A stretch of 63,014 nucleotides of DNA, from the IMG/VR virus record IMGVR_UViG_3300045988_147415. One strand, given 5' to 3'. The position numbers and the translations under genes were made by a program. Below the pieces are notes generated by a model. That model did not search any database. It was given only the letters and a program-made list of their open reading frames with translations, and was not told where the DNA came from. The DNA is from a virus. Its lineage: Duplodnaviria > Heunggongvirae > Uroviricota > Caudoviricetes. Positions 5,225 to 36,301 of the stretch are shown here, piece after piece; the first letter of the stretch is position 1; the number at the start of each line of letters is the position of its first letter.

Positions 5225-6024
5225 TCGATCACTCCGTTTTGAGTCGTATCAAAATTCCTGGCAGGTATGCAGTAGTAAAGCGAACCAACATGCTGTGTGC
5301 CGTAGCTAAAAATACGGTGCACGTACCACCAGCGGCGGGCTACGCCGTTTACCATCTCTTCATTCCATTCAAGAATTGATCCGACGGGGACGTTATTTGC
5401 TGCAATACGCAGAATCAGAACATCATCGGTTAAGCCATCCTGCTCTCCGTCTGCGTCAATCGCATGGAAAGAGTCACGCCCGTCAGGGTTATCCAGCACA
5501 TAAACGATTTCAGGTTCCTGGTAAGTCAGTTCGCGTTGGTTGTTATCCAGTTCAGTGAATGACTCTTCTCCTGTTTCATCGCTGACTACCCCATATGTGC
5601 CAACATCTGGTCGATATAAGAGAGCCTGAAACGCGTCTGGGCTGGATTCAATAATCAGCATCCAGTCTGCGCGGATTTGGTCGTTAAAGGCTTTATGCCC
5701 GTTATAGCGTGCTTTTAGCTGTGGAGTTGGTTCTCTGCCAGCCAGGGAAGGTGGAAGTATGGCTATATCTGATTCGCCAGCATCCGGAGTAAGGCCACCG
5801 TTGCTATCAGCAAAATTATCATGGCTATCAGCTTTGGCGGCGGGTTGCTCTTCCAGAATGCTGAATGAATCCGATCCGGTATTGCCATGTTCCGGCGCGC
5901 CTCCTGCATTCGCTTCAATCGGCGCTGGCGTTTCTCTCTGCGTGCTGTCATGTTCTGACTCCTTACTTGCCAGGTTTGCATCGTCAGCAAACCATTCGTC
6001 AAAACGGCCCATAAGCATCCTCAA
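5221..6024 (-). CDS. hypothetical phage protein (first gene of baseplate operon; acidic N-terminal region)
   Basis: 267-aa ORF with GAGGA RBS; operon position only. Confidence 0.35.
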   Translation of the reverse strand: MRMLMGRFDEWFADDANLASKESEHDSTQRETPAPIEANAGGAPEHGNTGSDSFSILEEQPAAKADSHDNFADSNGGLTPDAGESDIAILPPSLAGREPTPQLKARYNGHKAFNDQIRADWMLIIESSPDAFQALLYRPDVGTYGVVSDETGEESFTELDNNQRELTYQEPEIVYVLDNPDGRDSFHAIDADGEQDGLTDDVLILRIAANNVPVGSILEWNEEMVNGVARRWWYVHRIFSYGTQHVGSLYYCIPARNFDTTQNGVIE

Positions 6025-6102
6025 AGGTCGATCTGTCAGGTATCGAAAGGAAGATTTTCTGGAGATTGTGATTTTGGATGAAGGAGGGGGAATTCATAAA
6101 AT

Positions 6103-6129
6103 GCACTTGCGCACAGTGCAACGGTGCGC
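6103..6129. promoter_or_regulatory. overlapping palindromes GCACTTGCGCACAGTGC / GCGCAC-N9-GTGCGC in the higBA promoter region (candidate HigA operator)
   Basis: Dyad symmetry immediately upstream of a TATAGT -10-like hexamer and the higB RBS. Confidence 0.3.
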
Positions 6130-6174
6130 TATAGTTATGGCATTCGGTAATCATCACGGAGGATCAAATGACTA

Positions 6175-6477
6175 ATGACCAAAAAAATTAACATAAAGGA
6201 TTTCAGGGATGCGTGGCTTGATGATTTTTTTGAATTTTCAACACCACATAGAAAGATACCTCCTGATATTCATATGACATTGTCACGGAAGTTGGACATT
6301 ATCAATGCCGCAACTACCTGTAAGGATTTAAGATCACCACCAGGTAATCGGTATGAGGAACTGTCAGGGAAGCTAAATGGCTATTCATCAGTAAGGGTGA
6401 ATAAGCAATATAGGTTAATTTTTAAGTGGGTTAACGGAAAGGCCGAGGACTTGTATCTCGACCCTCACAAATACTAA
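6175..6477 (+). CDS. higB: HigB-family toxin (plasmid maintenance system killer, RelE/ParE superfamily)
   Basis: DLRSPPGNRYEELSGKLNGYSSVRVNKQYRLIFKWVNG matches the conserved HigB core; toxin-first order with adjacent HTH antitoxin. Confidence 0.8.
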   Translation: MTKKINIKDFRDAWLDDFFEFSTPHRKIPPDIHMTLSRKLDIINAATTCKDLRSPPGNRYEELSGKLNGYSSVRVNKQYRLIFKWVNGKAEDLYLDPHKY

Positions 6478-6547
6478 AACAGATACCCGGTTACGGACCG
6501 GGTTCTGACCAGAGTCCACTTAATACGCACGCTAGTAAGGGCAAAAA

Positions 6548-6886
6548 ATGAAACAGGCAACCAGAAAACCGACGACCGTAGGTGATATCCTGCTGTACGA
6601 ATACCTGGAGCCGTTAGAGCTGAAGATCAACGAGTTAGCAGAAATACTTCATGTTCATCGTAACACCGTAAGTGCTCTTGTTAATAATAATCGTAAGCTA
6701 ACGATGGATATGGCATATCGCCTGGCAAAAGCATTCGATACTTCTGTAGATTTTTGGATTAATCTTCAGACCGCAGTAGATCTGTGGGAAGTCGAAAATG
6801 ATATGCGCGTTCAGGAAGAGTTAAGTCGTATCAATACTGCTGAAAAATTTATTTCTCAGCGGAACCTGAATAAAAAAGCAGCCTGA
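6548..6886 (+). CDS. higA: HigA-family antitoxin (XRE-type HTH)
   Basis: GDILLYEYLEPLELKINELAEILHVHRNTVSALVNNNRKLTMDMAYRLAKAFDTSVDFWINLQ is a classic HigA HTH; directly downstream of higB. Confidence 0.8.
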   Translation: MKQATRKPTTVGDILLYEYLEPLELKINELAEILHVHRNTVSALVNNNRKLTMDMAYRLAKAFDTSVDFWINLQTAVDLWEVENDMRVQEELSRINTAEKFISQRNLNKKAA

Positions 6887-6906
6887 TATAGTAAAACACA
6901 TACAAA

Positions 6907-6935
6907 AAGCCCACTTAGCAAGTGGGCTTTCCTTT
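6907..6935 (+). terminator. Rho-independent terminator after higA
   Basis: Hairpin AAGCCCACT-TAGCA-AGTGGGCTT followed by a T-rich tract. Confidence 0.5.
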
Positions 6936-6942
6936 GTAATTA

Positions 6943-7143
6943 ATGAACATTAAACCTATCCGTACAGAACAAGATTATGAGGCCGCACTGCGTGCGGTCG
7001 AACCGATGTTCGATAACGAACCGGAAATGAATACTCCGGAAGGTGATTTCTTTGAGGTTATGAGTCTTCTCATTGAGGAGTACGAGAAGAAACATTACCC
7101 AATTCAGCCACCATCACCTGTTGAATCTTTTAACTATCCATAA
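6943..7143 (+). CDS. short ORF resembling only the N-terminal (non-HTH) domain of XRE/HigA-type antitoxins; possibly truncated
   Basis: MNIKPIRTEQDYEAALRAVEPMF...EEYEKKHYPI is the usual N-terminal segment of longer antitoxins but the ORF stops before any HTH. Confidence 0.4.
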   Translation: MNIKPIRTEQDYEAALRAVEPMFDNEPEMNTPEGDFFEVMSLLIEEYEKKHYPIQPPSPVESFNYP

Positions 7144-7164
7144 TAAAAGTAATCAGGATAAGCT

Positions 7165-7893
7165 ATGATGTCAGAAAAAGTTAAAGATAATTCGTCTATA
7201 AATGAAACAGAACTAAAATCATTTTCTGAAATAATAAAAGATAAAATATTTAACAAGGTTTTTGCATATGTTGTCATTTCTTTTCTAATCCTTAACTGGA
7301 AGGATATTTTAATTATATTAAAGTCAAAGGACGACATCCTATATACATTATCTATTGTTTTTGTTGGTGGTAATGTACCGTTCTTTGATAATTGGATTGT
7401 ACCCCCGTGGGTTTGTCACGTTGTAATCCCATTTATTTATGGAGTATTTGCATCTGTATTAGCTCCTATTCTCACACTGACGATATCTAAGCTAACAAGT
7501 AAATTATACACTGAAATAAGATATTTAGATGAAGTTGCTGATTATGATAAAAGAATAGAATTGCAAAGAAAGAAAACAAAGTTAAATCAAGCAACCAATG
7601 ACGCTAAATATTCAAAACAAATCTTAGATGAAAATGAAAATAAACTTAATGACTTGGTTACGAAACAGCGAGAAATTTGTGGCGCGATAAAACTATTGCA
7701 TACTGATGTTGGCAGTATTATTGAACTATATAAAAATAAGGGGGTTAGCATTGAATCTCCGCAAGATTTATGTGATTTTATAGTCGCTATAAAAAGCACA
7801 TCATTCTATAATGATGACAAGCATTTTAATAAATTGGTGTCTGATATTTCCAGTTTGTTTGATAATACTGGAATTGATCTTTCAAAAAAATGA
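7165..7893 (+). CDS. AT-rich cargo gene: membrane protein with cytoplasmic coiled-coil domain (candidate abortive-infection/defence protein)
   Basis: Strong drop in GC over the ORF; three hydrophobic helices then a Lys/Glu/Asn-rich coiled-coil region; own terminator. Confidence 0.55.
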   Translation: MMSEKVKDNSSINETELKSFSEIIKDKIFNKVFAYVVISFLILNWKDILIILKSKDDILYTLSIVFVGGNVPFFDNWIVPPWVCHVVIPFIYGVFASVLAPILTLTISKLTSKLYTEIRYLDEVADYDKRIELQRKKTKLNQATNDAKYSKQILDENENKLNDLVTKQREICGAIKLLHTDVGSIIELYKNKGVSIESPQDLCDFIVAIKSTSFYNDDKHFNKLVSDISSLFDNTGIDLSKK

Positions 7894-7899
7894 AAGCCC

Positions 7900-7940
7900 A
7901 GCATAAACTACTAGGCTATGTGTGGTTTATGCTTTTTTTA
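7900..7940 (+). terminator. Rho-independent terminator after the AT-rich membrane-protein gene
   Basis: Hairpin AGCATAAAC...GTTTATGCT followed by TTTTTTT. Confidence 0.5.
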
Positions 7941-9120
7941 CATACTCCATGAACATTTTTTCAGCTTGTGCTGGTGGTGTTCCAGCCATGACAAGCGCAT
8001 CAATGAACGCCTGCTTCTTCAGTGCGAACTGATCGGCAAGGCGTTGCTGAAGCTCCTTGTTTTTCTGTTTCTCACGTTGCAAGGCCGCTTCTTTTGCTGC
8101 CGCCCGTTTTTTCTGTGCATCTGACAACTTTCTGGCCTTGGTCAATTGGTCACGTAGTTTGTCGATCTTGCCGTTGTCCTTTGCCAGTTTTGTACTTAAA
8201 GCTGCCTGGCGCTTCTGATAGAGCCTCCATTCGCGTTTGGCGGCTTCAACGTTCGTTTTACTGCTACGATTGCGATTAAACTCCTTCTCGTCTTCTTTTG
8301 AGAAGTGTTTAGTTGTACGGCGGCGATCGTCACCAAATGCAATTTGCGTTGCAGCCTTTTGTAGCGCACGAGCAATACTCATTTGCCAACTGGCGGACTG
8401 TAACCGCGTCATTGAGTGGATCACGTGTTTACAGGCGACGCCTTGCAGCTTCGGGTTGCGAACTTTTGGATAGGCGTATTCTTTTGGCGGTGCCAGGGCA
8501 AAGTTACCCGCAGTGGCGATGTAACGATACCAGTATTGATGACGACCACAGTCACAATCGAAAGACACTCGCCCGGCGCACAGTGATTTAGTGATTTTGA
8601 GAGCTGATTTATCGTCTTCTGCGATGTCATCAACCATCTGATCCCATTCTTCAAAGCGTATCCTGACGATATGGTGCTGGTGGACGGATATATCCGATGC
8701 TTCTACGCGGATATTAATCACATTGTGGCGAAGAGATACGGGTGTAGCTCTTTTGATACCAGATCCGTCATCCACGGCGTTATTTGCACGCTTAATATCG
8801 ATTGCCTGGCTGGATGCCACCAGCTGGGCGTATGTGATGCCAGCCGTCTTGCTGTCATATTTTTCGCGCGTTTTACTCCGTAGCTTTTCGAAACCTTTCA
8901 GGTCGTCTCGCGTGAAGAACGTGCCGCCTTTTTTCTTCCCTAACTTGAGAATATCTTCGGCGGATTTGTTCCTCAGTCTACCTGGCGTCAGCGTCCGGTG
9001 AGCTTGTCGGCGCTTACGGGTTTGTTCTTTCCTGATAAGGTCGAATAAACGCGTGAAGTCCTTAGAGGACAGGCCGTCAGTGATATAGCGCCCGTCCTGG
9101 TTTTTCAGGAAATCAGGCAT
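7927..9120 (-). CDS. SWIM zinc-finger protein with Lys/Arg-rich coiled-coil C-terminus
   Basis: FDCDCGRHQYWYRY...GVACKHVIH fits the CxCx(n)CxH SWIM motif; 397 aa. Confidence 0.55.
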   Translation of the reverse strand: MPDFLKNQDGRYITDGLSSKDFTRLFDLIRKEQTRKRRQAHRTLTPGRLRNKSAEDILKLGKKKGGTFFTRDDLKGFEKLRSKTREKYDSKTAGITYAQLVASSQAIDIKRANNAVDDGSGIKRATPVSLRHNVINIRVEASDISVHQHHIVRIRFEEWDQMVDDIAEDDKSALKITKSLCAGRVSFDCDCGRHQYWYRYIATAGNFALAPPKEYAYPKVRNPKLQGVACKHVIHSMTRLQSASWQMSIARALQKAATQIAFGDDRRRTTKHFSKEDEKEFNRNRSSKTNVEAAKREWRLYQKRQAALSTKLAKDNGKIDKLRDQLTKARKLSDAQKKRAAAKEAALQREKQKNKELQQRLADQFALKKQAFIDALVMAGTPPAQAEKMFMEYVKKA

Positions 9121-12470: not shown

Positions 12471-13412
12471 TTAACTAACAATCCAGTCCGTAGCAACAAC
12501 ATCCTCTGGAGCTAAATCAATCGCATGGATTTTCCCATCCCGGATGGTGCGCCAGTGCTTTCGTGATCCACCTTCGGGCCATACCCATACACCTTCAGGC
12601 CAGGATGCTCGACGGCATACGATTGCATACCCTGTTTTAATCCTCTCTCTCGCGGTATGCAACGACAGGTTTGCCTTTGGACTTTCAGGTACAGGATGGT
12701 GAATGGCCTGAAACAGCCCCATTTTGGGGTGATACCAGCGTTTATTACGTGGTTCTGCCTCCGACATCACCTGCTTAAAGGCTTTCCGGAAGGGGGCCAG
12801 GGCCACAATGGAGCGTCGCGCAAGCAAACCATCTGGAGTTAAAAACTCATGCGTATCGGTGGGAATCCGGAAAGCGTTGACCAGGTTGCGACATTTGGCT
12901 TCAGTCAGGCCACATTTCGCCGCCAGCTGGCGGTAGCCAATGTAGCCTTCCGGAATATTGCCTTTCTTGATTTGCTCGACGGTTTCAGCGACTTCGGACA
13001 CTTGTGCCGATACTTCGGCTACCTGGGCATTAACGGCGTTGATCCGGCGTTCATGCTCAAGATGCATTTGCGCCATTTCAGCCAGGATTTCGGCTTTTGA
13101 TTTTAACTGTACCCGGGCATTCTCCAGTTCGCGCCAGCGGTCCACCAGCCGGGCGGTAAATTCGGGAGAAAGCTGTGCGACGACAATGATACTGTCACGC
13201 TTGCCTTGTTCGCCTTCAAAGATGTAAGCCTTGGAAAATCGACGAGGGCCAACTGATTGTTTATTTTCAATTTCCTCAATTTGAGGAAATTGAATGACAC
13301 CACCTTTAGTTAATACTTCAATGGTACGCTTCACATTATCATGACGCTTACCTACCAGTTCCGCGATCTCAATACTGGTCATTGTCGCTTTTTGAGAGAT
13401 GGACAGATTCAT
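12471..13412 (-). CDS. ant: phage antirepressor (N-terminal Rha-type domain, C-terminal Ant domain), immI-like copy 1
   Basis: TSIEIAELVGKRHDNVKR Rha-type N-terminus; 313 aa; paralog of the 51842..52549 gene; preceded by an icd-like ORF as in P1 immI. Confidence 0.75.
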   Translation of the reverse strand: MNLSISQKATMTSIEIAELVGKRHDNVKRTIEVLTKGGVIQFPQIEEIENKQSVGPRRFSKAYIFEGEQGKRDSIIVVAQLSPEFTARLVDRWRELENARVQLKSKAEILAEMAQMHLEHERRINAVNAQVAEVSAQVSEVAETVEQIKKGNIPEGYIGYRQLAAKCGLTEAKCRNLVNAFRIPTDTHEFLTPDGLLARRSIVALAPFRKAFKQVMSEAEPRNKRWYHPKMGLFQAIHHPVPESPKANLSLHTARERIKTGYAIVCRRASWPEGVWVWPEGGSRKHWRTIRDGKIHAIDLAPEDVVATDWIVS

Positions 13413-25882: not shown

Positions 25883-26272
25883 ATGGGCTTCCCTTCTCCT
25901 GCGGCGGATTATGTTGAAAGCAGAATTTCTCTTGATCAGCAACTAATCAGGCATCCATCAGCGACATACTTCATGCGGGCGGCAGACAGCCATCACCGTG
26001 AGGGAATATTGCAGGGTGCTTTGCTGGTGGTTGATTCCTCGCTTACTCCGGTTGATGGCTCTCTGCTTGTGTGCGCTATGGAGGGCGAATATCGCATAAA
26101 GAGATACCGAAAGTATCCGCGCCAGCACCTGGAGGATTTAAGCACCGGGAAGAAAGAGGCGTTACCAGTGGATGACGATGGATACACGGGCAGTAATGCT
26201 GTTTTTGGTGTGATCACTCATGTCATCAATGATGCCCGAAGTGGGGAGTTTGATGATTGTCCGGTTATTTAA
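25883..26272 (+). CDS. humD: UmuD'-like protein (HumD)
   Basis: Begins at GFPSPAADYVE, matching the post-cleavage UmuD' N-terminus; S24 peptidase fold residues retained. Confidence 0.85.
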   Translation: MGFPSPAADYVESRISLDQQLIRHPSATYFMRAADSHHREGILQGALLVVDSSLTPVDGSLLVCAMEGEYRIKRYRKYPRQHLEDLSTGKKEALPVDDDGYTGSNAVFGVITHVINDARSGEFDDCPVI

Positions 26273-26344
26273 GCTGCAAAGTGCTGGTGCTTTATGCCTG
26301 TGAAGTTTATAATCGTGTACACATAACGAGTACACGAGGTGTTT

Positions 26345-26566
26345 ATGCAATCCATTAACTTCCGTACCGCGCGCGGCAACCTTTCTGAAGTGCTCAACAA
26401 TGTTGAAGCCGGGGAAGAGGTTGAAATCACCCGCAGAGGCCGTGAGCCAGCAGTAATTGTCAGCAAGGCTACTTTCGAAGCCTACAAAAAAGCGGCGCTG
26501 GATGCTGAATTTGCATCCCTGTTTGACACCCTGGACTCCACCAACAAGGAACTGGTTAACCGATAA
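26345..26566 (+). CDS. phd: Phd antitoxin (prevent-host-death)
   Basis: [39 protein letters not shown]... matches P1 Phd essentially throughout. Confidence 0.9.
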
Positions 26567-26946
26567 TGAGGCATATATCACCGGAAGAACTTATTGCGCT
26601 TCATGATGCGAATATAAGCCGCTACGGCGGCCTGCCGGGAATGTCAGATCCGGGTAGGGCAGAGGCCATTATCGGGAGAGTTCAGGCCAGAGTTGCCTAC
26701 GAAGAGATCACCGACCTTTTCGAAGTCTCCGCCACCTACCTGGTGGCTACGGCGAGAGGGCATATATTCAATGATGCCAATAAGCGTACCGCGCTAAACA
26801 GTGCGCTGCTATTTCTACGCCGTAACGGTATACAGGTATATGATTCTCCCGTGCTGGTGGAGCTTACAGTGGGGGCTGCAACTGGTGAAATCCCCGTATC
26901 TTCAGTAGCGAAAAAACTACGTGAACTATATGGTTCCAATATTTGA
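26566..26946 (+). CDS. doc: Doc toxin (death-on-curing, Fic fold)
   Basis: [25 protein letters not shown]...[12 protein letters not shown] matches P1 Doc; TAATG overlap with phd. Confidence 0.9.
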
Positions 26947-26950
26947 AAAG

Positions 26951-26974
26951 AAGCCCGCTCAACCAGGCGGGCTT
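26951..26974. terminator. hairpin shared by convergent doc and terminase-paralog genes
   Basis: AAGCCCGC-TCAACCAG-GCGGGCTT; on the minus strand it is followed by a U-rich tract. Confidence 0.4.
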
Positions 26975-26981
26975 CCTACTA

Positions 26982-28088
26982 TCACTCAATGATTTTTTCT
27001 GCTGTCAGCCAGCTAATTTCTTGCCTGTCTTTCGGCGGTTTTAGCATGTGGGCGTATTCAGCGACATTCTCCCACGGAATTGTTTTTGCCCACTCAACGA
27101 TAGCATTGTGATCTGCAGTGAAGAGTGGAATGGTGTGCGATTTCAACCACTCTAATGTTGTAACGCCATGTTTTTTTGCGTGGTGCTGTGCATGATGCCG
27201 GGCTATCACTTGTAATGGCATTGTCCATTCACTACCATCAGGCATCGAAAAGCGCATTGTTTTCGGCATATCTGATTCAAGAACAGCCTCCCGAATACCC
27301 GGGAACTCACCAAGAACCATGCGACGGTAATCATCGCCGATTTTACCACCATACATTTCTGCAATCCCATCAAGATAATCTTGAGTAAGCAGAGGTGATT
27401 CTTCTGCGTTCAGCTTGATGGCTGTATAAATACCACATGGATTTTCTTCAGTTTTTGCACGACCATGATGGGAATCGTAAAAGTGTCCATGTTCCTCCTC
27501 TGGAGGAGCAGACATTAAAAGTATACGTGAATCGTCACTCACTAAAGATGCTCTTAACATCCCGAATAGCCGATAGCTTACAAGAGCCGCGTCCATAACA
27601 ATGATCAAAAGATGTTCAGCATAATATCCGGCTACATCTTCCTCATAATTTAGGCGATATGGTTTAATTTCGCAGCCCCAAGATTTTTGGTAACGATGAT
27701 TGAGGCCATTTTGGTCGATTTGAAAATACTCTCCCAGTAATGGCGCTTTTGTTTTAGCTTTCTCCCAATACATATTCATGAGTGAGAGAGTTACCATTCC
27801 ATTACGCTCAAAGTCTGGAGCGACCATGACCGTTTTAGACTCAGGCATCAGGATCGTATAAAGGATACAAATGATAGCCAGAGCAGACTTATGCCCTATC
27901 CCAGTCGGTGTGGTAACGCTGACTGCTGAACCTTTTTGTTGAATCGCCTCAACAATTAATTTTTGCTGGTGGGTTAACTTAACCCCCATCAACTCTTCTG
28001 CTGCTAATGCCCAGTCATGGCTATATTTGCTTACCAGCTCTATCCACTCTGGTAATTCGGTGATGTTTTTAGGCGTCAGCATCAGCAT
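26982..28088 (-). CDS. terminase large-subunit ATPase-domain paralog with degenerate catalytic motifs
   Basis: Aligns with the pacB-like protein over about 250 aa (THQQKLIVEAIQ, HFYDSHHGRAKTEENP) but Walker A is GIGHKS rather than GTGKS and Walker B is VMDAAL rather than ILDEAS. Confidence 0.55.
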   Translation of the reverse strand: MLMLTPKNITELPEWIELVSKYSHDWALAAEELMGVKLTHQQKLIVEAIQQKGSAVSVTTPTGIGHKSALAIICILYTILMPESKTVMVAPDFERNGMVTLSLMNMYWEKAKTKAPLLGEYFQIDQNGLNHRYQKSWGCEIKPYRLNYEEDVAGYYAEHLLIIVMDAALVSYRLFGMLRASLVSDDSRILLMSAPPEEEHGHFYDSHHGRAKTEENPCGIYTAIKLNAEESPLLTQDYLDGIAEMYGGKIGDDYRRMVLGEFPGIREAVLESDMPKTMRFSMPDGSEWTMPLQVIARHHAQHHAKKHGVTTLEWLKSHTIPLFTADHNAIVEWAKTIPWENVAEYAHMLKPPKDRQEISWLTAEKIIE

Positions 28089-28875
28089 CCTCCGCTACCT
28101 CTGCTTCCACATCAGCCACGGCTTCATCGGACGGTTCTTCTTTGGCCTGCTCTGCAATCGCCGCACGGCATTTCGCCCTGGCTGTAGCGATTGCTTCAGC
28201 TCGCACATCATCAGGAATCGTTGACGTGATATACATATCCAGTTCTTCGGCGCGGAACACTGTTTGGTCCAGATATTCGCGTAGCATCCAGGTAAATTCG
28301 AAATCACACGCGATAATTTCTGCGCTACCTTCTGCACCATTTGGGAAATGAATAAATGCCTGTTTAGCCAAACCGATAACACGACATGCGGTTGCCAAAA
28401 CAGCGACAACCAGGTTTACATTTTCACACGCTACGGGCTGATTAACGCCGGAGATTACTCCATTTAACTGTCGGTTATATGGAAGGTAGTTTGAGATGCG
28501 TTCTACGCGCCATGTGCCAGTCAGGCTGCCATTTTTAAAGATAATTGGTGTAACGGATAGCCCAAGCTCGCGTATAAGTCGTTGCGCTATAGCAGGATCA
28601 TTAAACAGGTCTAATGCTACACATTCGAAAGACTGCGCAAGGGCAAACAGTTCTTCCAGCGAGTAGTCTTTGCCCCTGGCGGTGATGTAACGACGAACGC
28701 CGCTGTCCGCATCACTCCATATAGCTACGCCATGCTCTTCATTCAGTTCTTCATTAAAGCCGAGATACGTCATGATAGTGCGTTCAATCGTGTCAAACGG
28801 CAGTGACATGTCGGCGTTAACAGCCACCAGCAGGCCATTACGCAAGCGGTATTGAATTGCTTTAGTATTTTCCAC
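28069..28875 (-). CDS. hypothetical protein with acidic C-terminal tail
   Basis: 268 aa; C-terminus EAVADVEAEVAEDADADA. Confidence 0.45.
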   Translation of the reverse strand: MENTKAIQYRLRNGLLVAVNADMSLPFDTIERTIMTYLGFNEELNEEHGVAIWSDADSGVRRYITARGKDYSLEELFALAQSFECVALDLFNDPAIAQRLIRELGLSVTPIIFKNGSLTGTWRVERISNYLPYNRQLNGVISGVNQPVACENVNLVVAVLATACRVIGLAKQAFIHFPNGAEGSAEIIACDFEFTWMLREYLDQTVFRAEELDMYITSTIPDDVRAEAIATARAKCRAAIAEQAKEEPSDEAVADVEAEVAEDADADA

Positions 28876-28881
28876 GTTAAA

Positions 28882-29544
28882 TCACTCCACTACAAACCAG
28901 TCACATGCCAGTAAGTCGCCTACAGAAGGAACCCACGGAACAACTACACCTTGTGCATTTTTTAAGGCGAAATAAGCACCATACGGAACGAGGTCGCCGG
29001 GGAAATATCCCTTAATGGCTTCCATTCGTGCCGGGTACTGTCCTTCAGGAACCAGCCAGCAGAATTGGTTTTCGCCGTTCCACCCGCGTCGGGCAACTTT
29101 CTTGCCATCCTTCAGCCACATCAGCGCGTCAGAAAAGTCGGCTGCTTCAAGGTCGATTTCTTCTTGTAGAGTAGCGATACCGCCAGCAGAAATAGTTACG
29201 TCCCTGGCTGTAATGAATGTCACCCCATTGTGACCTTCAATGCTGAGCGATACCCCATTTTCGGAGGCGTCGTTAACCCGGCTATAGCATTTTTCAAATG
29301 CTTTCTCTGGCACATAGACCAGATAGCCATTTTCAGCAGTGACGAGATATCCTCCTATTTGCGGTCGGAATTTTTCCAAGAACACACCATCAACACGAAG
29401 CGTCATTCCTTTTGGCTCAACGACTTCGATACTGCCAAAAATGGGCGCATAAGCTTCGCCGACAATAACAATATCTTTGATTTTCGATGCCCGAATGACG
29501 CTGTGGCTTTTGTATTTGGGGAACACCTGAAAAGTGCTGGCCAT
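28882..29544 (-). CDS. hypothetical protein with DUF2829-like C-terminal motif
   Basis: ALMWLKDGKKVARRGWNG motif, repeated in 37191..37766. Confidence 0.45.
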   Translation of the reverse strand: MASTFQVFPKYKSHSVIRASKIKDIVIVGEAYAPIFGSIEVVEPKGMTLRVDGVFLEKFRPQIGGYLVTAENGYLVYVPEKAFEKCYSRVNDASENGVSLSIEGHNGVTFITARDVTISAGGIATLQEEIDLEAADFSDALMWLKDGKKVARRGWNGENQFCWLVPEGQYPARMEAIKGYFPGDLVPYGAYFALKNAQGVVVPWVPSVGDLLACDWFVVE

Positions 29545-30924: not shown

Positions 30925-30946
30925 GTGTTAGAAATTTAATTTACGA
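30925..30946 (-). promoter_or_regulatory. operator-like motif (CGTAAATTAAATTTCTAACACA on minus strand)
   Basis: Recurrent motif at the cre 3' end, upstream of 30523..30867. Confidence 0.4.
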
Positions 30947-31969
30947 ATCCATAAGGCGGCTATTAGCCCCCACAGACACGCCGCCACGGCGAAGATACCG
31001 CATAAGTGTTTCCGGTTTCTTCCAGGTTCCTTCCTGCATGATCTCCACCATAGACACCTGCTTTTCAGCCATATCAATAGCGGCCCCGACGCGTGCACTA
31101 TGCCCGGTCCACGTCCGGTATCTTCCTTTGTTTGGCGTAGCATCTCTTTTATTCAGCAACACCCAGGCGTCGCTGAATATTTTCTCCATTGCAGGTGCAG
31201 TAAGGGGCGTTGTCGTGATCCTGGCCTTATTGCTACGGTGTATCGGCGGGAACAGCACTGCGTCAGGATGTTCGCGAAGCCCGGAAACATCCAGCCAGTC
31301 ATTCAGCACAGCGGTAGTGCGACGGGAAAGCACCTTATCAAGCCCGGCGGCGGTCGTTATTGTCTTCGTGTGTGAAATATGTAGCGTGACAGTGTCACCT
31401 GTTTGGTCCAGATCTCCTACACGAATACGCGAGATTTCCGACATACGCATCAGCGTATTGTATGCAACAAAGAGAAAAGCCCGGTTGCGCAGGTCCACCA
31501 GCCGTTCTGACCTGGACAACAGGACGTCGAGCAGTTTCAGATCGTCCCACCGCAGCGGTATAGCCTGGCCTGTTCGTTCGCCTTTTTCAGTTGCCGCTTC
31601 GCGCCGGATGCGCCGCATAGCCAGAGAAACACTTTTATCATCCGAAAGTGGCGCAAGGCCACAATGCGAAAGCAGCATGTTCAGCATGGCGTAGTGCTTA
31701 TCAATGGTGGTCGAAGCCAGATCGGCATCATGCAGCTGAAGAAAATACTCGCGGGCCATTTCTGGTGAGATCGGAAACCAGGCAAGCTGGCGAGCGTGAC
31801 ACCAGCGCGCCCAGGAATGAAACACCAACCGGAGGTCGCGCAGAGTATTCGGCGCATAAGCCCCCTGGTCATTCATGAACCGCATAAAGTTTTCTGCGGC
31901 TTCCTGGTACTCTTTGCCAATGTTGCGCAGAAAACCACCGGAACTGCCAGAGATAATTAATTCACTCAT
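30941..31969 (-). CDS. cre: Cre-like tyrosine recombinase
   Basis: Colinear similarity to P1 Cre (SWARWC, VSLAMRRIRRE, RNRAFLFVAYNTLMRMSEISRIRVGD, HTKT, SGHSARVGAAIDMA, EIMQEGTW); roughly 40 percent identity by eye. Confidence 0.85.
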   Translation of the reverse strand: MSELIISGSSGGFLRNIGKEYQEAAENFMRFMNDQGAYAPNTLRDLRLVFHSWARWCHARQLAWFPISPEMAREYFLQLHDADLASTTIDKHYAMLNMLLSHCGLAPLSDDKSVSLAMRRIRREAATEKGERTGQAIPLRWDDLKLLDVLLSRSERLVDLRNRAFLFVAYNTLMRMSEISRIRVGDLDQTGDTVTLHISHTKTITTAAGLDKVLSRRTTAVLNDWLDVSGLREHPDAVLFPPIHRSNKARITTTPLTAPAMEKIFSDAWVLLNKRDATPNKGRYRTWTGHSARVGAAIDMAEKQVSMVEIMQEGTWKKPETLMRYLRRGGVSVGANSRLMDS

Positions 31970-32120
31970 GAAACTATTTGACCTCTATATACAGATGACG
32001 CTACGCGAAAAATATAAAAATGACAGGGTAGCTATAAGTTAATTTTCAAAATACAAGCCTTTGATTCGAGGCACGTATTTTCAGTGATGTCAACACTGTT
32101 CATCTACACATGATTATAGC

Positions 32121-32154
32121 CTAACTTTAAATAATGCCAATTATTTAAAGTTAT
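32121..32154. other. lox-like recombination site CTAACTTTAAATA-ATGCCAAT-TATTTAAAGTTAT
   Basis: 13-bp inverted arms around an 8-bp asymmetric spacer; arms resemble loxP arms (ATAACTTCGTATA); about 150 bp upstream of the cre-like start. Confidence 0.65.
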
Positions 32155-32363: not shown

Positions 32364-33401
32364 ATGAGTAAGAAGTCGATCGAGAAAGAGTACAAACGGT
32401 TCCTGCAAACCGCTGAACGGTGGAAAGAGCTGGTGGTCGCAAACTCTGTTTTCCATGATACCAGTTATGCTGGCGAGGAATTCCGCCATGTTGCATTAAC
32501 GCATGACCAAAACATATTAGAAGAAGCTGAAAAATGTCTTGCTGAATGGAAAGCCTTCGTTGACATGTGCCGCGATGCCGACGGCAAAGCGTCGAACATT
32601 GTTGAGTCTGTATATTCTCCGATCCCATTCATCATTGAGGACACCAATCAAAGCACGCATGTCGTTGTGCAAAGCGCTACAACAACACGTACATTTACAC
32701 GTGAACAATTGCTAAAAAAATACGACAAAATCATAAAGAAAAGCCTGAAAAACAGGGTTTTTTCTCAAATTGTAGGTGCTCTTGAAGAAGAACAGCGCTT
32801 CTTTGAAGCTGAGCCTGAAGGCGAGATCTACCGGGCGCGTAAAGAGGCATATACAGATGTTGTGCTGACAACAAACATCGAAGGCAGCAATGCCCTTTCT
32901 CGCTTTAGAGTTGGCGCACATGGCGCATTGGTTTTCGCAAGACTACCGAAGACAACGATCCCCGTTGTCAATAATGTTGGTGAACGCCGGAGCATTACAA
33001 TTTATTCTGGCGTCGAATCGGTACCTTGCAGCCTTCTCGGCGATTTTAACTTATATCGTGTTCGTGACCTGGAAAAACACCAGCCAAGCTACGTTGCGAA
33101 GTCGTACATCTTAAGGAACATCGATATTCGCAATGAAAGCCTTAAGCAGAAATCCGCTAAGATGCTGGAGGATGCCGATCCGGCTATTCGCCATATCATT
33201 GAGCGTAAGATACGTACATCACGTGAAGCAATGGCAAGGCTGGATAAAATGGATCTGGAATTGTTAGACGTAATGATGGCCTCTGGAGACGACCTGACCG
33301 GCATTAAACTGAATGAAGCTCGTAAAAAATACGGCAAAGCAATCGAAGAACGTTACGGATACACATTCCCCCAAACGCAGTACGCCGCGAAGCTCTGGTA
33401 A
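32364..33401 (+). CDS. hypothetical protein; candidate C1-type master repressor by position
   Basis: 345-aa ORF divergent from cre across the lox site and convergent with pacB, the topology of c1 in P1; no sequence-level confirmation. Confidence 0.35.
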   Translation: MSKKSIEKEYKRFLQTAERWKELVVANSVFHDTSYAGEEFRHVALTHDQNILEEAEKCLAEWKAFVDMCRDADGKASNIVESVYSPIPFIIEDTNQSTHVVVQSATTTRTFTREQLLKKYDKIIKKSLKNRVFSQIVGALEEEQRFFEAEPEGEIYRARKEAYTDVVLTTNIEGSNALSRFRVGAHGALVFARLPKTTIPVVNNVGERRSITIYSGVESVPCSLLGDFNLYRVRDLEKHQPSYVAKSYILRNIDIRNESLKQKSAKMLEDADPAIRHIIERKIRTSREAMARLDKMDLELLDVMMASGDDLTGIKLNEARKKYGKAIEERYGYTFPQTQYAAKLW

Positions 33402-33428: not shown

Positions 33429-34937
33429 TTATATATCCAGATCTGGCATTTCGATATCCGCCAGAACCTGATCTCGGAAAGTTGCCATTTCGGCACCAAT
33501 ATCTTCATTAGCAGGCACATAGTCCACCAGCATAGTGAAGCAGTAGGTATCCCATCGGTCAGGCGATTTGATGTTTAGCTTTTGCCGCATGTGCTCTTTG
33601 CGCATCATCGCCATTTTCCCTTCCTCATTCAGTAAAAAGGGGATTTTTGACGCTTGCTCTGCCGTTTTAGGGTCACTGTCTATCCGCATACGCCCTGACT
33701 TTATGGCATCACGCGCCATAATATTTGCGTAGGCACGCTGATTAACAAATCGCTCCCTGTCTTTGTTCGCAAACATGGGTTTTCCCCACCGAATACGTAC
33801 CGGGTTCGCACCACGACGCACCAACTGCGCACACGTATCAGAACCAAAACCATCGGCATCAACCGCGATTGTTATATTCGGGTATTTTTCCGGCGTACAT
33901 TCGTTATATATGAAGTCAGCAAAGGCCAATGGGTCCATAGTGCCAGGCATCTCCATTACCTTAAAGTTAACAACGCGCCGCTTATCCCTGTGACCAGATA
34001 CCTTGCAGATGTTGAGGACCGACTTATCTCGCCCATTACCAACGTCAGCCGTTGCCACCCATCCCCAGTTTTTCTCCAACAACACCTTGCGGCGAGCAGC
34101 GCGATCGCATTCATCACGACCAAGCAAATAGCCGTTAATTTCTCGTGGGAACTGACCAAGCACCTTGACCATGTACTCAATAGAATCGCGCCCGCCATAT
34201 TCCAGAAGCTTCTGCTTGATGAATTGTGGTGTGACGAACGGTGATTCTTCCGAGTTAAGAACAATTGCTGTCCAGATCCCTTTCGGGTTGTCTGGGGTTT
34301 TTGCTTGAGAATGGTGCGAATCGTAGAAATAACCACTTGGCCTTGTTGGCTGGGATAGCATCAACATCCGGTTATCTTCTTCAGTAAGAGCACCGGTCAT
34401 TACGCCGATCGCCTTATCAGATATACCAGATGCTTCATCCAGAATTAGAAGCAAATGTGCCGCGTGTTCACCCGCCAGCGCTTCTTCGTTGCCGAGTCGA
34501 TAACCTTTGCAGAGAACTTCCCAAATCCCCTTACGGGAGCGCTCATAAAACATGGTGTCAGAGAGGACAAAATAGGTCTGCAACCACCCATGACGCTTAA
34601 CTGCATTCGCCCAATACTGTTTAACGTATTTGAATACGCCTGTTTTTACCTGGCCTATCTTGTTAGCAACAATGATGACACGGGCATCGGGGAACAGGAT
34701 CATGAAAATCAACAGCAACATCGCGGTAAGGGACGACTTCCCCGTTCCGTGTCCGGACGTGACGGTCGTCCTACTCCCCGTTTCCTGCACGGACTGAATG
34801 ATCTGCTGCTGCTGGTGGGAGGGGAACATCCCAAAAATATCGACAACAGCCTGGGTAAAGTTGTAGCGGTATTTGATTACCATATCGCGCCAGCGTGGAT
34901 CGCTGGTGACGCATTTAATCTTGCGCCCTCCAGCCAT
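33429..34937 (-). CDS. pacB: terminase large subunit (PacB-like)
   Basis: Walker A SGHGTGKSS and Walker B LLLILDEASG; 502 aa; directly downstream of the small-subunit gene. Confidence 0.8.
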   Translation of the reverse strand: MAGGRKIKCVTSDPRWRDMVIKYRYNFTQAVVDIFGMFPSHQQQQIIQSVQETGSRTTVTSGHGTGKSSLTAMLLLIFMILFPDARVIIVANKIGQVKTGVFKYVKQYWANAVKRHGWLQTYFVLSDTMFYERSRKGIWEVLCKGYRLGNEEALAGEHAAHLLLILDEASGISDKAIGVMTGALTEEDNRMLMLSQPTRPSGYFYDSHHSQAKTPDNPKGIWTAIVLNSEESPFVTPQFIKQKLLEYGGRDSIEYMVKVLGQFPREINGYLLGRDECDRAARRKVLLEKNWGWVATADVGNGRDKSVLNICKVSGHRDKRRVVNFKVMEMPGTMDPLAFADFIYNECTPEKYPNITIAVDADGFGSDTCAQLVRRGANPVRIRWGKPMFANKDRERFVNQRAYANIMARDAIKSGRMRIDSDPKTAEQASKIPFLLNEEGKMAMMRKEHMRQKLNIKSPDRWDTYCFTMLVDYVPANEDIGAEMATFRDQVLADIEMPDLDI

Positions 34938-36301
34938 TAATCATCCTCCGGCGGTTCTATCGCGATATCATCATCTCCGGCGTCATACCCTGCATCAGAT
35001 GCATCATAATCACCGTAAATTTCAGCCGTTGCCGAAGGGTCAATATCCAGCTCTTCGTCGTTGGCCTCGAATTCTCCAGCTTTACGCTCGCCATTGCGGT
35101 CGTAATCTCCGCACCCCAATTCTTCAACAATGGTTGCCACATCCGCCCGGCGCTCTGCCAGCCATTGCGGATGGTTAGCCTGAAGCGTTGCAAACTCCCT
35201 TGCCTCTTTGTCCAGCTGTTCATCATCAACATCATTGACGTCAGAAACAGGTGGTTCGAGAAGAGTGATAGCTTTCGCCGCGCGCGCCGCGAGGATAGCC
35301 GGGACGCTGACCCCCTGGCGCTCGATGTATTCAGCAACACCGATATCATCCAGTTCCTCGCGCTCACGCATACGTATAGCGGCGGCGATAACTCTGGCTG
35401 CGCGTGCGTCAGCGCCAATGCGATATTCAATCTCTTTGCCACGCTGTTCGGCCTGTAGGCGTGCTAATTCGAGTTTTTCTCTGGCCTCAGCCTCTTTGAA
35501 TGCTTGCTGGCGAGCGCTCTGACGAAGCTTTTCATCCCCCTGTCGCAGCTTTTGTTCGGACTGATATATAGCTGCCAACCTACTGATAAAATCATTCATG
35601 TAGTAGGCCGCGTCACTGATTAGACCGAGAAGGCGCTGCCCAGGGTGCATTCCTTCTGGCTCTTTATCGCCCAAGGCGTCTATTTCCGCCTGTAGACGTT
35701 CGGCCTCCTGATCAACAATGCTTTGATACTGAAGTGCGCGCTCTTGCGCCATTTGAATTGCTAACCGCAGGTGTTCTTCTGCGCCGTTCTTCATCATATC
35801 GCGAGCCACATTCGTAGTGGGCAATGTGGCACGCTGCACAGCACCGCCAGGGATCATTGCTGAAGATCCCTCAATTTTTGGGGCGCTTTTATCTTCTTCG
35901 GGGATCATTTTCGCCATTTTTTCGCGCAATGATCTCCTGACAGATTCTTTTATCTCATTGTTATTATTGGTATTACTTTCATGATCCGAAGTTTTCTTTC
36001 TTGGCATACTTCGGAAAGAACCTGCACCCTGCGAATTGTCAATTTCTGTAAATTTTGTTTTTTCTGCACCCTCTTCCAGCTTTTTTGTTGCTCTTCCCGC
36101 CCGTTTTTTTTCAGGTGATTTGGTGCTTTTTTTTGTTGTCTTTACCTGCGACCGCACCTCATTTTTTTTCATATTGAGATGCTTTCTGGCTGTATTGAAG
36201 CTAAGGCCATGCTCCTCACAGTATTCCTTTACAGTGATCCCTTTTTCTTCACGCAACGCTATAAAGCGGGCGCGGTGCTCCTCCCAATTAACCAGACTCA
36301 T
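34937..36301 (-). CDS. pacA: terminase small subunit (PacA-like) with N-terminal HTH
   Basis: N-terminal HTH (ITVKEYCEEHGLSFNTARKHL); overlaps the pacB start; contains an internal GATC-hexamer cluster. Confidence 0.6.
   Translation of the reverse strand: MSLVNWEEHRARFIALREEKGITVKEYCEEHGLSFNTARKHLNMKKNEVRSQVKTTKKSTKSPEKKRAGRATKKLEEGAEKTKFTEIDNSQGAGSFRSMPRKKTSDHESNTNNNNEIKESVRRSLREKMAKMIPEEDKSAPKIEGSSAMIPGGAVQRATLPTTNVARDMMKNGAEEHLRLAIQMAQERALQYQSIVDQEAERLQAEIDALGDKEPEGMHPGQRLLGLISDAAYYMNDFISRLAAIYQSEQKLRQGDEKLRQSARQQAFKEAEAREKLELARLQAEQRGKEIEYRIGADARAARVIAAAIRMREREELDDIGVAEYIERQGVSVPAILAARAAKAITLLEPPVSDVNDVDDEQLDKEAREFATLQANHPQWLAERRADVATIVEELGCGDYDRNGERKAGEFEANDEELDIDPSATAEIYGDYDASDAGYDAGDDDIAIEPPEDD
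35850..35990. other. candidate pac packaging site: cluster of GATC hexamers inside pacA
   Basis: Five GATC sites within about 135 bp (near 35852, 35865, 35903, 35931, 35983) plus TGATCA near 35710, against about 0.5 expected by chance. Confidence 0.45.

Follow-up and report, generated by a model that had tools for sequence, protein, structure and literature searches.

Why would a phage-plasmid that encodes a complete packaging motor also keep a second copy of the ATPase domain of that motor, one from which the catalytic residues have been lost? The question is posed by a gene, abbreviated here to X, on the minus strand of IMG/VR virus record IMGVR_UViG_3300045988_147415, a stretch of 63,014 nucleotides (hereafter the window, to which all coordinates refer unless another record is named) which by its sequence is a D6-like phage-plasmid of the P1 family. 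Around X it is 99.9% identical to the E. coli plasmid pCUVET20-PYO4.3, and parts of phage D6 match it there at about 96% identity. The firm conclusion reached below is that X is a maintained, non-catalytic derivative of a terminase ATPase domain that works by binding and not by hydrolysis, while a role in counter-defence is put forward more tentatively. The gene, its parts and the active enzyme with which it is compared are as follows.

26982..28082, minus strand: gene X, predicted pseudo-terminase of 366 aa (open reading frame, Shine-Dalgarno sequence, PGAP call and match to PHROG 5902)
27297..28082, minus strand: N-terminal domain of X, with a predicted ATPase fold of the terminase large subunit (TerL)/PacB type but without its catalytic motifs (BLASTP, AlphaFold2, Foldseek)
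27885..27911, minus strand: degenerate Walker A, TPTGIGHKS, against SGHGTGKS (alignment)
27585..27611, minus strand: degenerate Walker B, LLIIVMDAA, against hhhhDEAS (alignment)
27465..27482, minus strand: FYDSHH motif, followed by the NPxG..LNxExSP segment, both retained from PacB (alignment)
26985..27275, minus strand: C-terminal 'MPDGSxW' domain of about 95 aa, of unknown function
33429..34937, minus strand: PacB, the active terminase large subunit, with intact SGHGTGKS and LILDEAS

A kinship between X and the ATPase domain of PacB had been claimed in a first-pass annotation of the window, and it is borne out by BLASTP, which aligns the two proteins over 258 aa (35% identity, 59% positives, 2 gaps, E=8e-51), a match that chance does not explain. 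The motifs quoted at that stage can all be found in the alignment, where THQQ..IQ is shared and where TPTGIGHKS is paired with SGHGTGKSS, IIVMDAAL with LILDEASG, and HFYDSHHGRAKTEENP with YFYDSHHSQAKTPDNP. It had also been proposed that predicted structures be compared with terminases, and the outcome points the same way: an AlphaFold2 model, for which relatives of X were aligned together with PacBs, has a predicted local distance difference test score (pLDDT) above 90 for residues 10-262, and its best Foldseek matches in the PDB are the TerL ATPase domains of P74-26, T4 gp17, Sf6 gp2, D6E and HK97 (E 5e-9 to 1e-6). The N-terminal domain is thus predicted to adopt the TerL type of the additional strand, catalytic glutamate (ASCE) ATPase fold, and X is a paralog of the PacB ATPase domain. 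It also matches PHROG 5902 from end to end (E=8e-127, residues 7-367 on positions 3-358 of a profile of 359). The protein had originally been given as 368 aa, encoded at 26982-28088; the mechanically read frame 26982..28088 on the minus strand is indeed intact, but it begins two codons too early. The likely start is the second ATG, at 28082, because a GGAGG (28089-28093) lies 6 nucleotides upstream of it and because the PGAP call (366 aa in the 99.9% identical plasmid) and all homologs fall at 364-366 aa.

The catalytic motifs were compared in an alignment of five full-length X lineages, one relative with its domains in reversed order (P0138, described below), five terminases of the same type that are more distantly related, and 15 PacBs whose hosts include Enterobacterales and Vibrionaceae. 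SGHG[TIV]GK[ST] and hhhhDEAS are present in all the real terminases aligned. In the X lineages, by contrast, the Walker A position that is otherwise an invariant Lys is occupied by H, Q, R, E or T, in some cases with a Lys one residue away; the first Gly of the P-loop has become Pro in four of the five full-length lineages (it is kept in the lineage found behind ban, and in P0138); the invariant DE of Walker B reads MD, TE, VD, IN or LN; and the Thr of motif III (QPT), invariant in the PacB-type terminases compared, is lost. X itself has neither the GK[ST] of Walker A nor the DE of Walker B that define a functional TerL. The degeneracy first noticed in a single protein is therefore found in all X lineages examined, because of which X very probably lacks ATPase activity. 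What has been kept is non-catalytic, and some of it is invariant: the N-terminal helices with a conserved Gln, an NEExxAG segment, FYDSHH (invariant in X and near-invariant in PacBs) and the NPxG..LNxExSP segment, an insertion of the PacB clade that is absent from more distant TerLs. The parts of X best conserved relative to PacB are the N-terminal helices, residues 186-263, FYDSHH among them, and this insertion.

X is under purifying selection and is not a relic. Pairwise Nei-Gojobori (NG86) comparisons of eight alleles or loci, at synonymous divergences (dS) from 0.09 to more than 2, give ratios of nonsynonymous to synonymous substitution (dN/dS) that lie at 0.2-0.45 over the full gene and at 0.06-0.2 in its C-terminal domain, the least constrained part being residues 76-140 (pN/pS 0.64-0.79). 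The reading frame is intact in all eight loci analysed, across three genomic contexts and lineages as divergent as 39% identity, and many non-catalytic residues are invariant. In a neighbour-joining tree of the ATPase domain (100 bootstraps), the X clade is recovered in 95/100 replicates, the PacB clade in 100/100, and the two together, to the exclusion of more distant terminases, in 100/100. X is accordingly sister to all the PacBs compared, and an old, or fast-evolving, offshoot of the P1-type terminase is a better description of it than a recent duplicate.

The alignment with PacB stops at residue 263, and residues ~272-366 of X show no similarity to the PacB nuclease, as the first-pass annotation had stated; nor did they give any match to a nuclease-like fold, the RNase H-like nuclease of TerL included. 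They form, in fact, a separate and widespread small domain. An exhaustive search with it returned 207 clusters at 50% identity and a profile search 450 clusters at 90% identity, and in most of these relatives, which come from phages and prophages, the domain stands alone as a protein of about 100 aa. Pfam has no entry for the family, which is present only inside two PHROGs, both of 'unknown function' (5902 and 17928); the second of these, which includes ORF36 of Xanthomonas phage CP2, is matched at positions 399-486. DUF5076 scores 13.9-16.3 bits against the domain (E ~0.01-0.05), below the gathering threshold of 25 bits, and two of 39 family members match, weakly. The structural model (pLDDT 82) is of a small alpha/beta domain that has no meaningful structural neighbour in the PDB and whose BFVD matches are uncharacterised phage proteins only, and no DNA-binding motif was found in it.

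The company that this small domain keeps elsewhere is informative. A stand-alone member adjoins the integrase in the early-left accessory region of lambdoid prophages, and in Xanthomonas phage CP2 and its relatives the domain ends a 511-aa DUF1351 protein. In P0138 the order seen in X is reversed: the small domain comes first, and the region after it, which resembles the N-terminus of PacB and is 34% identical to X (E=1e-20), is likewise without the P-loop Lys. The gene is interrupted by a Tn3-family transposase. Fusion in both orders argues that the pseudo-ATPase and the small domain function together. The P0138-type locus (L011 8001..10384, on a contig of GCA_024867085.4) has an AbiH gene and a RecA-dependent nuclease gene nearby. 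In Cronobacter phage JK004 (~94 kb, also with a PacB-like match) the small domain is encoded on its own, by a gene for 98 aa (L018 3995..4291) within a run of small hypothetical genes.

The genes and signals around X bear on when it is made and with which partners.

26943..26972, minus strand: hairpin terminator between X and the convergent doc (GCCCGC..GCGGGC stem, then TTCTTTTC)
28069..28875, minus strand: isaA homolog, 48% identical to P1 IsaA (E=3e-89)
28882..29544, minus strand: Tad2-like (DUF2829) protein, upstream member of the shuffling module (Pfam PF11195, E=1.6e-22)
32113..32140, minus strand: the only sigma-70-like promoter found upstream on this strand, before cre
34937..36301, minus strand: PacA, partner subunit of PacB and candidate binding partner of X

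Close to X, the plus strand carries humD, phd and doc (25883..26946), and the minus strand carries cre (30941..31969), two small open reading frames, dut, the Tad2-like gene, the isaA homolog and X; pacA and pacB lie about 5 kb away. X had been described as standing next to phd-doc. Adjacent it is, but doc is convergent with it, and on the 3' side of X a stop cluster and then a GC-rich hairpin with a T-tract divide the two. The adjacency is incidental, because the genes converge and because P1-type and ban-type homologs of X are nowhere near doc. The operon partner of X appears instead to be the isaA homolog upstream, whose 3' end overlaps the start of X by 14 nucleotides, the same overlap being found in P1-type loci, and the two are probably translationally coupled. 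The run from cre through dut, the Tad2-like gene and isaA to X may form one operon that starts at the cre promoter. The notion that isaA-X is a 'pseudo pacA-pacB' pair was rejected, as BLASTP finds no similarity between IsaA and PacA. Neither X, IsaA nor the C-terminal domain has a significant family in Pfam, NCBIfam or PADLOC, the IsaA homolog has no PDB match, and PADLOC-DB gave no defence-component match for X, IsaA or their neighbours; nor was a pac-like cluster of TGATCR hexamers found in or near X. The IsaA homolog ends in a strongly acidic tail (..EVAEDADADA), and the Tad2-like protein, whose gene is directly upstream of isaA-X, has an N-terminal extension of about 130 aa.

Among 748 PLSDB plasmids with a PacB-like match, 163 have a full-length X homolog and 78% have none, and the alleles fall into classes of ~99, 83, 64 and 48% identity. 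Closely related DNA is present in 92 of 5426 complete E. coli genomes, always on plasmids. X is thus an accessory gene of P1/D6-like phage-plasmids, present in about one-fifth of them. Three contexts were found, always early or non-structural operons and never the pac or late operon, and X usually overlaps isaA and adjoins the Tad2-like gene. In the D6-type context, which includes the window, cre..dut-Tad2like-isaA-X is convergent with doc; phage D6 itself has pdcA where the window has X. In the P1/IncY-type context, ssb-(DUF2829)-isaA-X is convergent with hxr and the ddr and dar anti-restriction genes, at the site where P1 has isaA-IS1-isaB, a known variable region, RD-2 (PMC6906374). The Tad2-like gene precedes isaA-X both in the D6-type context and in the IncY plasmid L017. 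In the ban-type context a 39%-identical X lies directly behind ban (DnaB-like) in L041, without isaA, and the IMG/VR contig also carries a normal PacB. Two P1 proteins were considered as counterparts of X and set aside, PdcB as an annotated HNH endonuclease at the doc-proximal site, and IsaB because it has no similarity to X, P1 having IS1 and isaB where its relatives have X.

The P1-type unit has a C1 operator (with one mismatch) ahead of ssb and a hairpin terminator of 10 bp 3' of X, and the stretch from ssb to X yielded no promoter-like site. This arrangement points to early and repressor-controlled expression of X in that unit, which would be off in lysogens and on in lytic growth. No P1-type C1 operator was found anywhere in the window, which is consistent with an immunity of a different, D6 type. 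At the c1 position the window has an open reading frame of 345 aa (32364..33401, plus strand) that is called 'phage repressor protein' in some plasmids and has no Pfam match.

The alleles of X do not track those of the terminase. In four D6-type plasmids X ranges from 65% to 95% identity: three of them have PacA, PacB and repressor that are 99-100% identical and yet X at 82% and 65%, while the fourth has PacA at 74% and PacB at 92% and yet X at 95%. X alleles are therefore decoupled from the resident PacA and PacB alleles in both directions. The IsaA and Tad2-like alleles (Tad2-like at 70-99% identity) shuffle independently of X and of each other. Among the matches listed, X is also equally distant (35-37%) from its own PacB and from those of P1 and other elements.

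What, then, might a terminase ATPase domain without its active site be kept to bind? The reading that we tentatively place first, though at a chance well short of even, is that X is an early-expressed terminase mimic acting in counter-defence. It is favoured by the hotspot location, the shuffling of alleles, the early operons, the adjacent Tad2-like gene and the neighbouring dar and ddr genes, and also by precedent: Avs2 and Upx directly target the ATPase domains of terminases, and the accessory TerL-ATPase-like proteins T4 vs.8 and Ksap1/2 fit or bind the Avs2 pocket, an anti-defence role having been suggested by the authors (PMC13601566). Counter-defence had not been considered in the first-pass annotation, and the gene neighbourhood favours it. 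In outline, X is a conserved and selected pseudo-enzyme, a duplicate of the PacB ATPase domain that is without the nuclease, has probably lost hydrolysis, and is joined to a small phage domain of wide occurrence. Since its operons are early or non-structural ones, it would appear in the cell ahead of the real terminase or together with it, and would present a PacB-ATPase-like surface to host sensors of terminase, whether of Avs1-3 or Upx type or another. Being without bound ATP and catalytic residues, it would occupy these sensors without productive activation, and its C-terminal domain could supply a second contact or block oligomerisation. The homology, the fold, the loss of motifs in all lineages, the purifying selection, the accessory distribution, the contexts and the decoupling from PacA and PacB are observed, whereas we infer the loss of ATPase activity, the early expression, the counter-defence role and the identity of the target. 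The bolder proposition, that X would be the first phage-encoded 'dead terminase' counter-defence factor, an early-expressed, ATP-blind mimic of the terminase ATPase domain that occupies host receptors for terminase (Avs1-3- or Upx-like) without triggering them and whose fused small domain is a general anti-immune adaptor, must be considered rather unlikely.

Several observations weigh against a role in counter-defence. EcAvs2 contacts terminase-bound ATP and, via bridging ATP, the hydration shell of the active-site Mg2+ (PMC13601566), and because of these contacts X, without the P-loop Lys and the Walker B acids, may not bind EcAvs2, or may bind it without 'sealing' the complex. The link from X to an immune sensor is an analogy drawn from gene context and precedent, and the association through gene neighbourhood is weak. 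That the neighbour works as a Tad2 is not established by its Pfam match to DUF2829, and PADLOC and Pfam gave nothing for X. The variability of residues 76-140 may reflect relaxed constraint and recombination rather than an arms race. Finally, the non-catalytic elements that X retains and that are specific to the PacB clade fit P1-specific packaging partners at least as well.

That last point leads to the main rival, a modulation of packaging or interference with it, in which X would join the PacB ring or sequester PacA or the portal through its retained surfaces and so block or delay pac cleavage or translocation, either as a brake that times the packaging of its own element or to hinder a P1-like phage that is co-resident or superinfecting. 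It is common for a pseudo-enzyme to act in the pathway of its active paralog, and the segments best conserved between X and PacB, which are non-catalytic and in part found only in the PacB clade, could plausibly be surfaces that contact other subunits or partners. In ring ATPases, moreover, a subunit without Walker B residues or arginine finger poisons the ring, as is established for TerL, for example with P74-26 R139A, and the structure of that variant (PDB 4znj) is among the structural matches of X. These arguments, which make packaging a serious contender if still an unlikely one, have to be set against the accessory status of X (missing from 78% of PacB-bearing plasmids), its consistent absence from pac and late operons, and the two-way decoupling of its alleles from those of PacA and PacB. 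With X as far from its own PacB as from others, nothing visible would spare the element's own motor, and in the P1-type element X, lying in a C1-controlled lytic unit, should be present during that element's own packaging. A regulator dedicated to the element's own packaging is in particular disfavoured, because of the accessory distribution, the site outside the pac and late operons and the decoupling of alleles. A variant that would benefit the lysogen, in which X expressed from the plasmid prophage blocks the packaging of incoming P1-like phages, draws on the position of the D6-type X, apparently last in an operon from cre, a gene that must be active in the plasmid state, and on its residence in a variable hotspot, as is often the case for prophage defence genes. 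The P1-type unit, with its C1 operator, should however be repressed in lysogens, X has no promoter of its own that could be found and no PADLOC match, and the problem of self-poisoning recurs, as foreign PacBs are no closer to X than the PacB of its own element is. The idea that lysogens express X as a dominant-negative factor against superinfecting phages is weakened, because the P1-type X sits in the C1-operator-controlled ssb unit, and exclusion of this kind is very unlikely.

It could be argued instead that X is an early factor of DNA metabolism, its dead RecA-like/ASCE domain serving as a DNA- or protein-binding scaffold together with replication or recombination and having no part in packaging or immunity, given that it follows ssb in the P1-type context, ban in L041 and dut in the D6-type context, and that its C-terminal domain is fused to DUF1351 and stands alone in the early-left region near the integrase of lambdoid prophages. 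Such evidence is purely positional, however, and most anti-host genes of temperate phages are likewise found in their early regions. The C-terminal domain has neither a DNA-binding motif nor a fold match, X is not needed for the growth of P1, since P1 itself is without it, and IsaA is non-essential in P1 (PMC10695390), so that a role in DNA metabolism appears quite unlikely. At the far end of the scale, and extremely unlikely, is the reading of X as the functionless leftover of a duplicated terminase, carried along in a recombination hotspot. The lost catalytic motifs and the high variability of residues 76-140 would suit a remnant, but the low dN/dS overall and still lower values in the C-terminal domain, sustained at dS up to more than 2, would not; nor would the intact frames in eight of eight loci across three contexts and down to 39% identity, the many invariant non-catalytic residues or the two-domain fusion in both orders. 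Counter-defence by mimicry of the terminase remains, on this balance, the reading that is tentatively preferred.

Two further regions of the window were noted. A low-GC island at 6001..8000 (GC 0.367, against ~0.48) holds an open reading frame of 242 aa (7165..7893, plus strand) whose product has a hydrophobic N-terminal half and no Pfam match and which looks like a moron. A Rha-family regulatory protein (PF09669) is encoded at 12471..13412 on the minus strand, and its last ~60 aa resemble by eye a DUF2829/Tad2-like motif (WPEGVWVW...DWIVS), a domain that Pfam does not report there.

TerL is regarded as an essential catalytic protein present in a single copy, and several bacterial immune sensors rely on it as an unavoidable mark of infection. 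That a copy of its ATPase domain without the catalytic residues is conserved under selection shows that phages also keep non-motor derivatives of the TerL fold. If X antagonises the sensing of terminase, such mimicry of the target would be a new class of immune evasion; if X acts on packaging instead, it would add a new layer of control or competition among the very common phage-plasmids of E. coli and Salmonella. There is also a consequence for annotation, as the public phage records L003 4971..6065 (MH422554.1) and MH445380.1 name a P1-type X homolog 'terminase large subunit'. This label is mistaken, given the degenerate motifs and the missing nuclease domain; X has just one, the fold, of the five testable defining features of a functional TerL and fails the other four, for which reason it should not be annotated as such. 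The ~95-aa domain family, with its hundreds of clusters, no Pfam entry and no structural match, likewise deserves to be flagged. No published description of X was found in the literature on isaA and pacB, terminase paralogs, D6 plasmid prophages and phage-plasmid hotspots.

Among known systems, the satellite proteins SaPI (Staphylococcus aureus pathogenicity island) Ppi and PICI (phage-inducible chromosomal island) Rpp interfere with or redirect packaging by targeting the small subunit of terminase, and are not homologs of TerL. X would resemble them as a small, non-catalytic accessory protein that binds terminase components, and differs from them in its TerL homology and in being encoded by the phage itself and not by a satellite. 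T4 vs.8 and Ksap1/Ksap2 share with X the state of a stand-alone, lineage-restricted TerL-ATPase-like copy besides the real terminase, but vs.8 keeps its Walker A and B and activates EcAvs2 (PMC13601566), whereas X has lost these motifs and has an extra C-terminal domain; a tblastn search with X gave no T4 record among the best 40 of 57 matching records (E limit 1e-5). PHROGs 5902 and 17928, both of which X matches, the first from end to end, are sequence clusters without functional annotation. PacB of the window has in common with X the ATPase-domain fold, the N-terminal helices with their Gln, FYDSHH, NPxG..LNxExSP and 35% identity. X differs from it in being without the Walker A Lys, the Walker B Asp/Glu, the motif III Thr and the RNase H-like nuclease, in having another C-terminal domain, and in being an accessory gene that lies outside the late operon and not beside pacA. 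X is, in these terms, a pseudo-enzyme that derives from the terminase ATPase and belongs to PHROG 5902.

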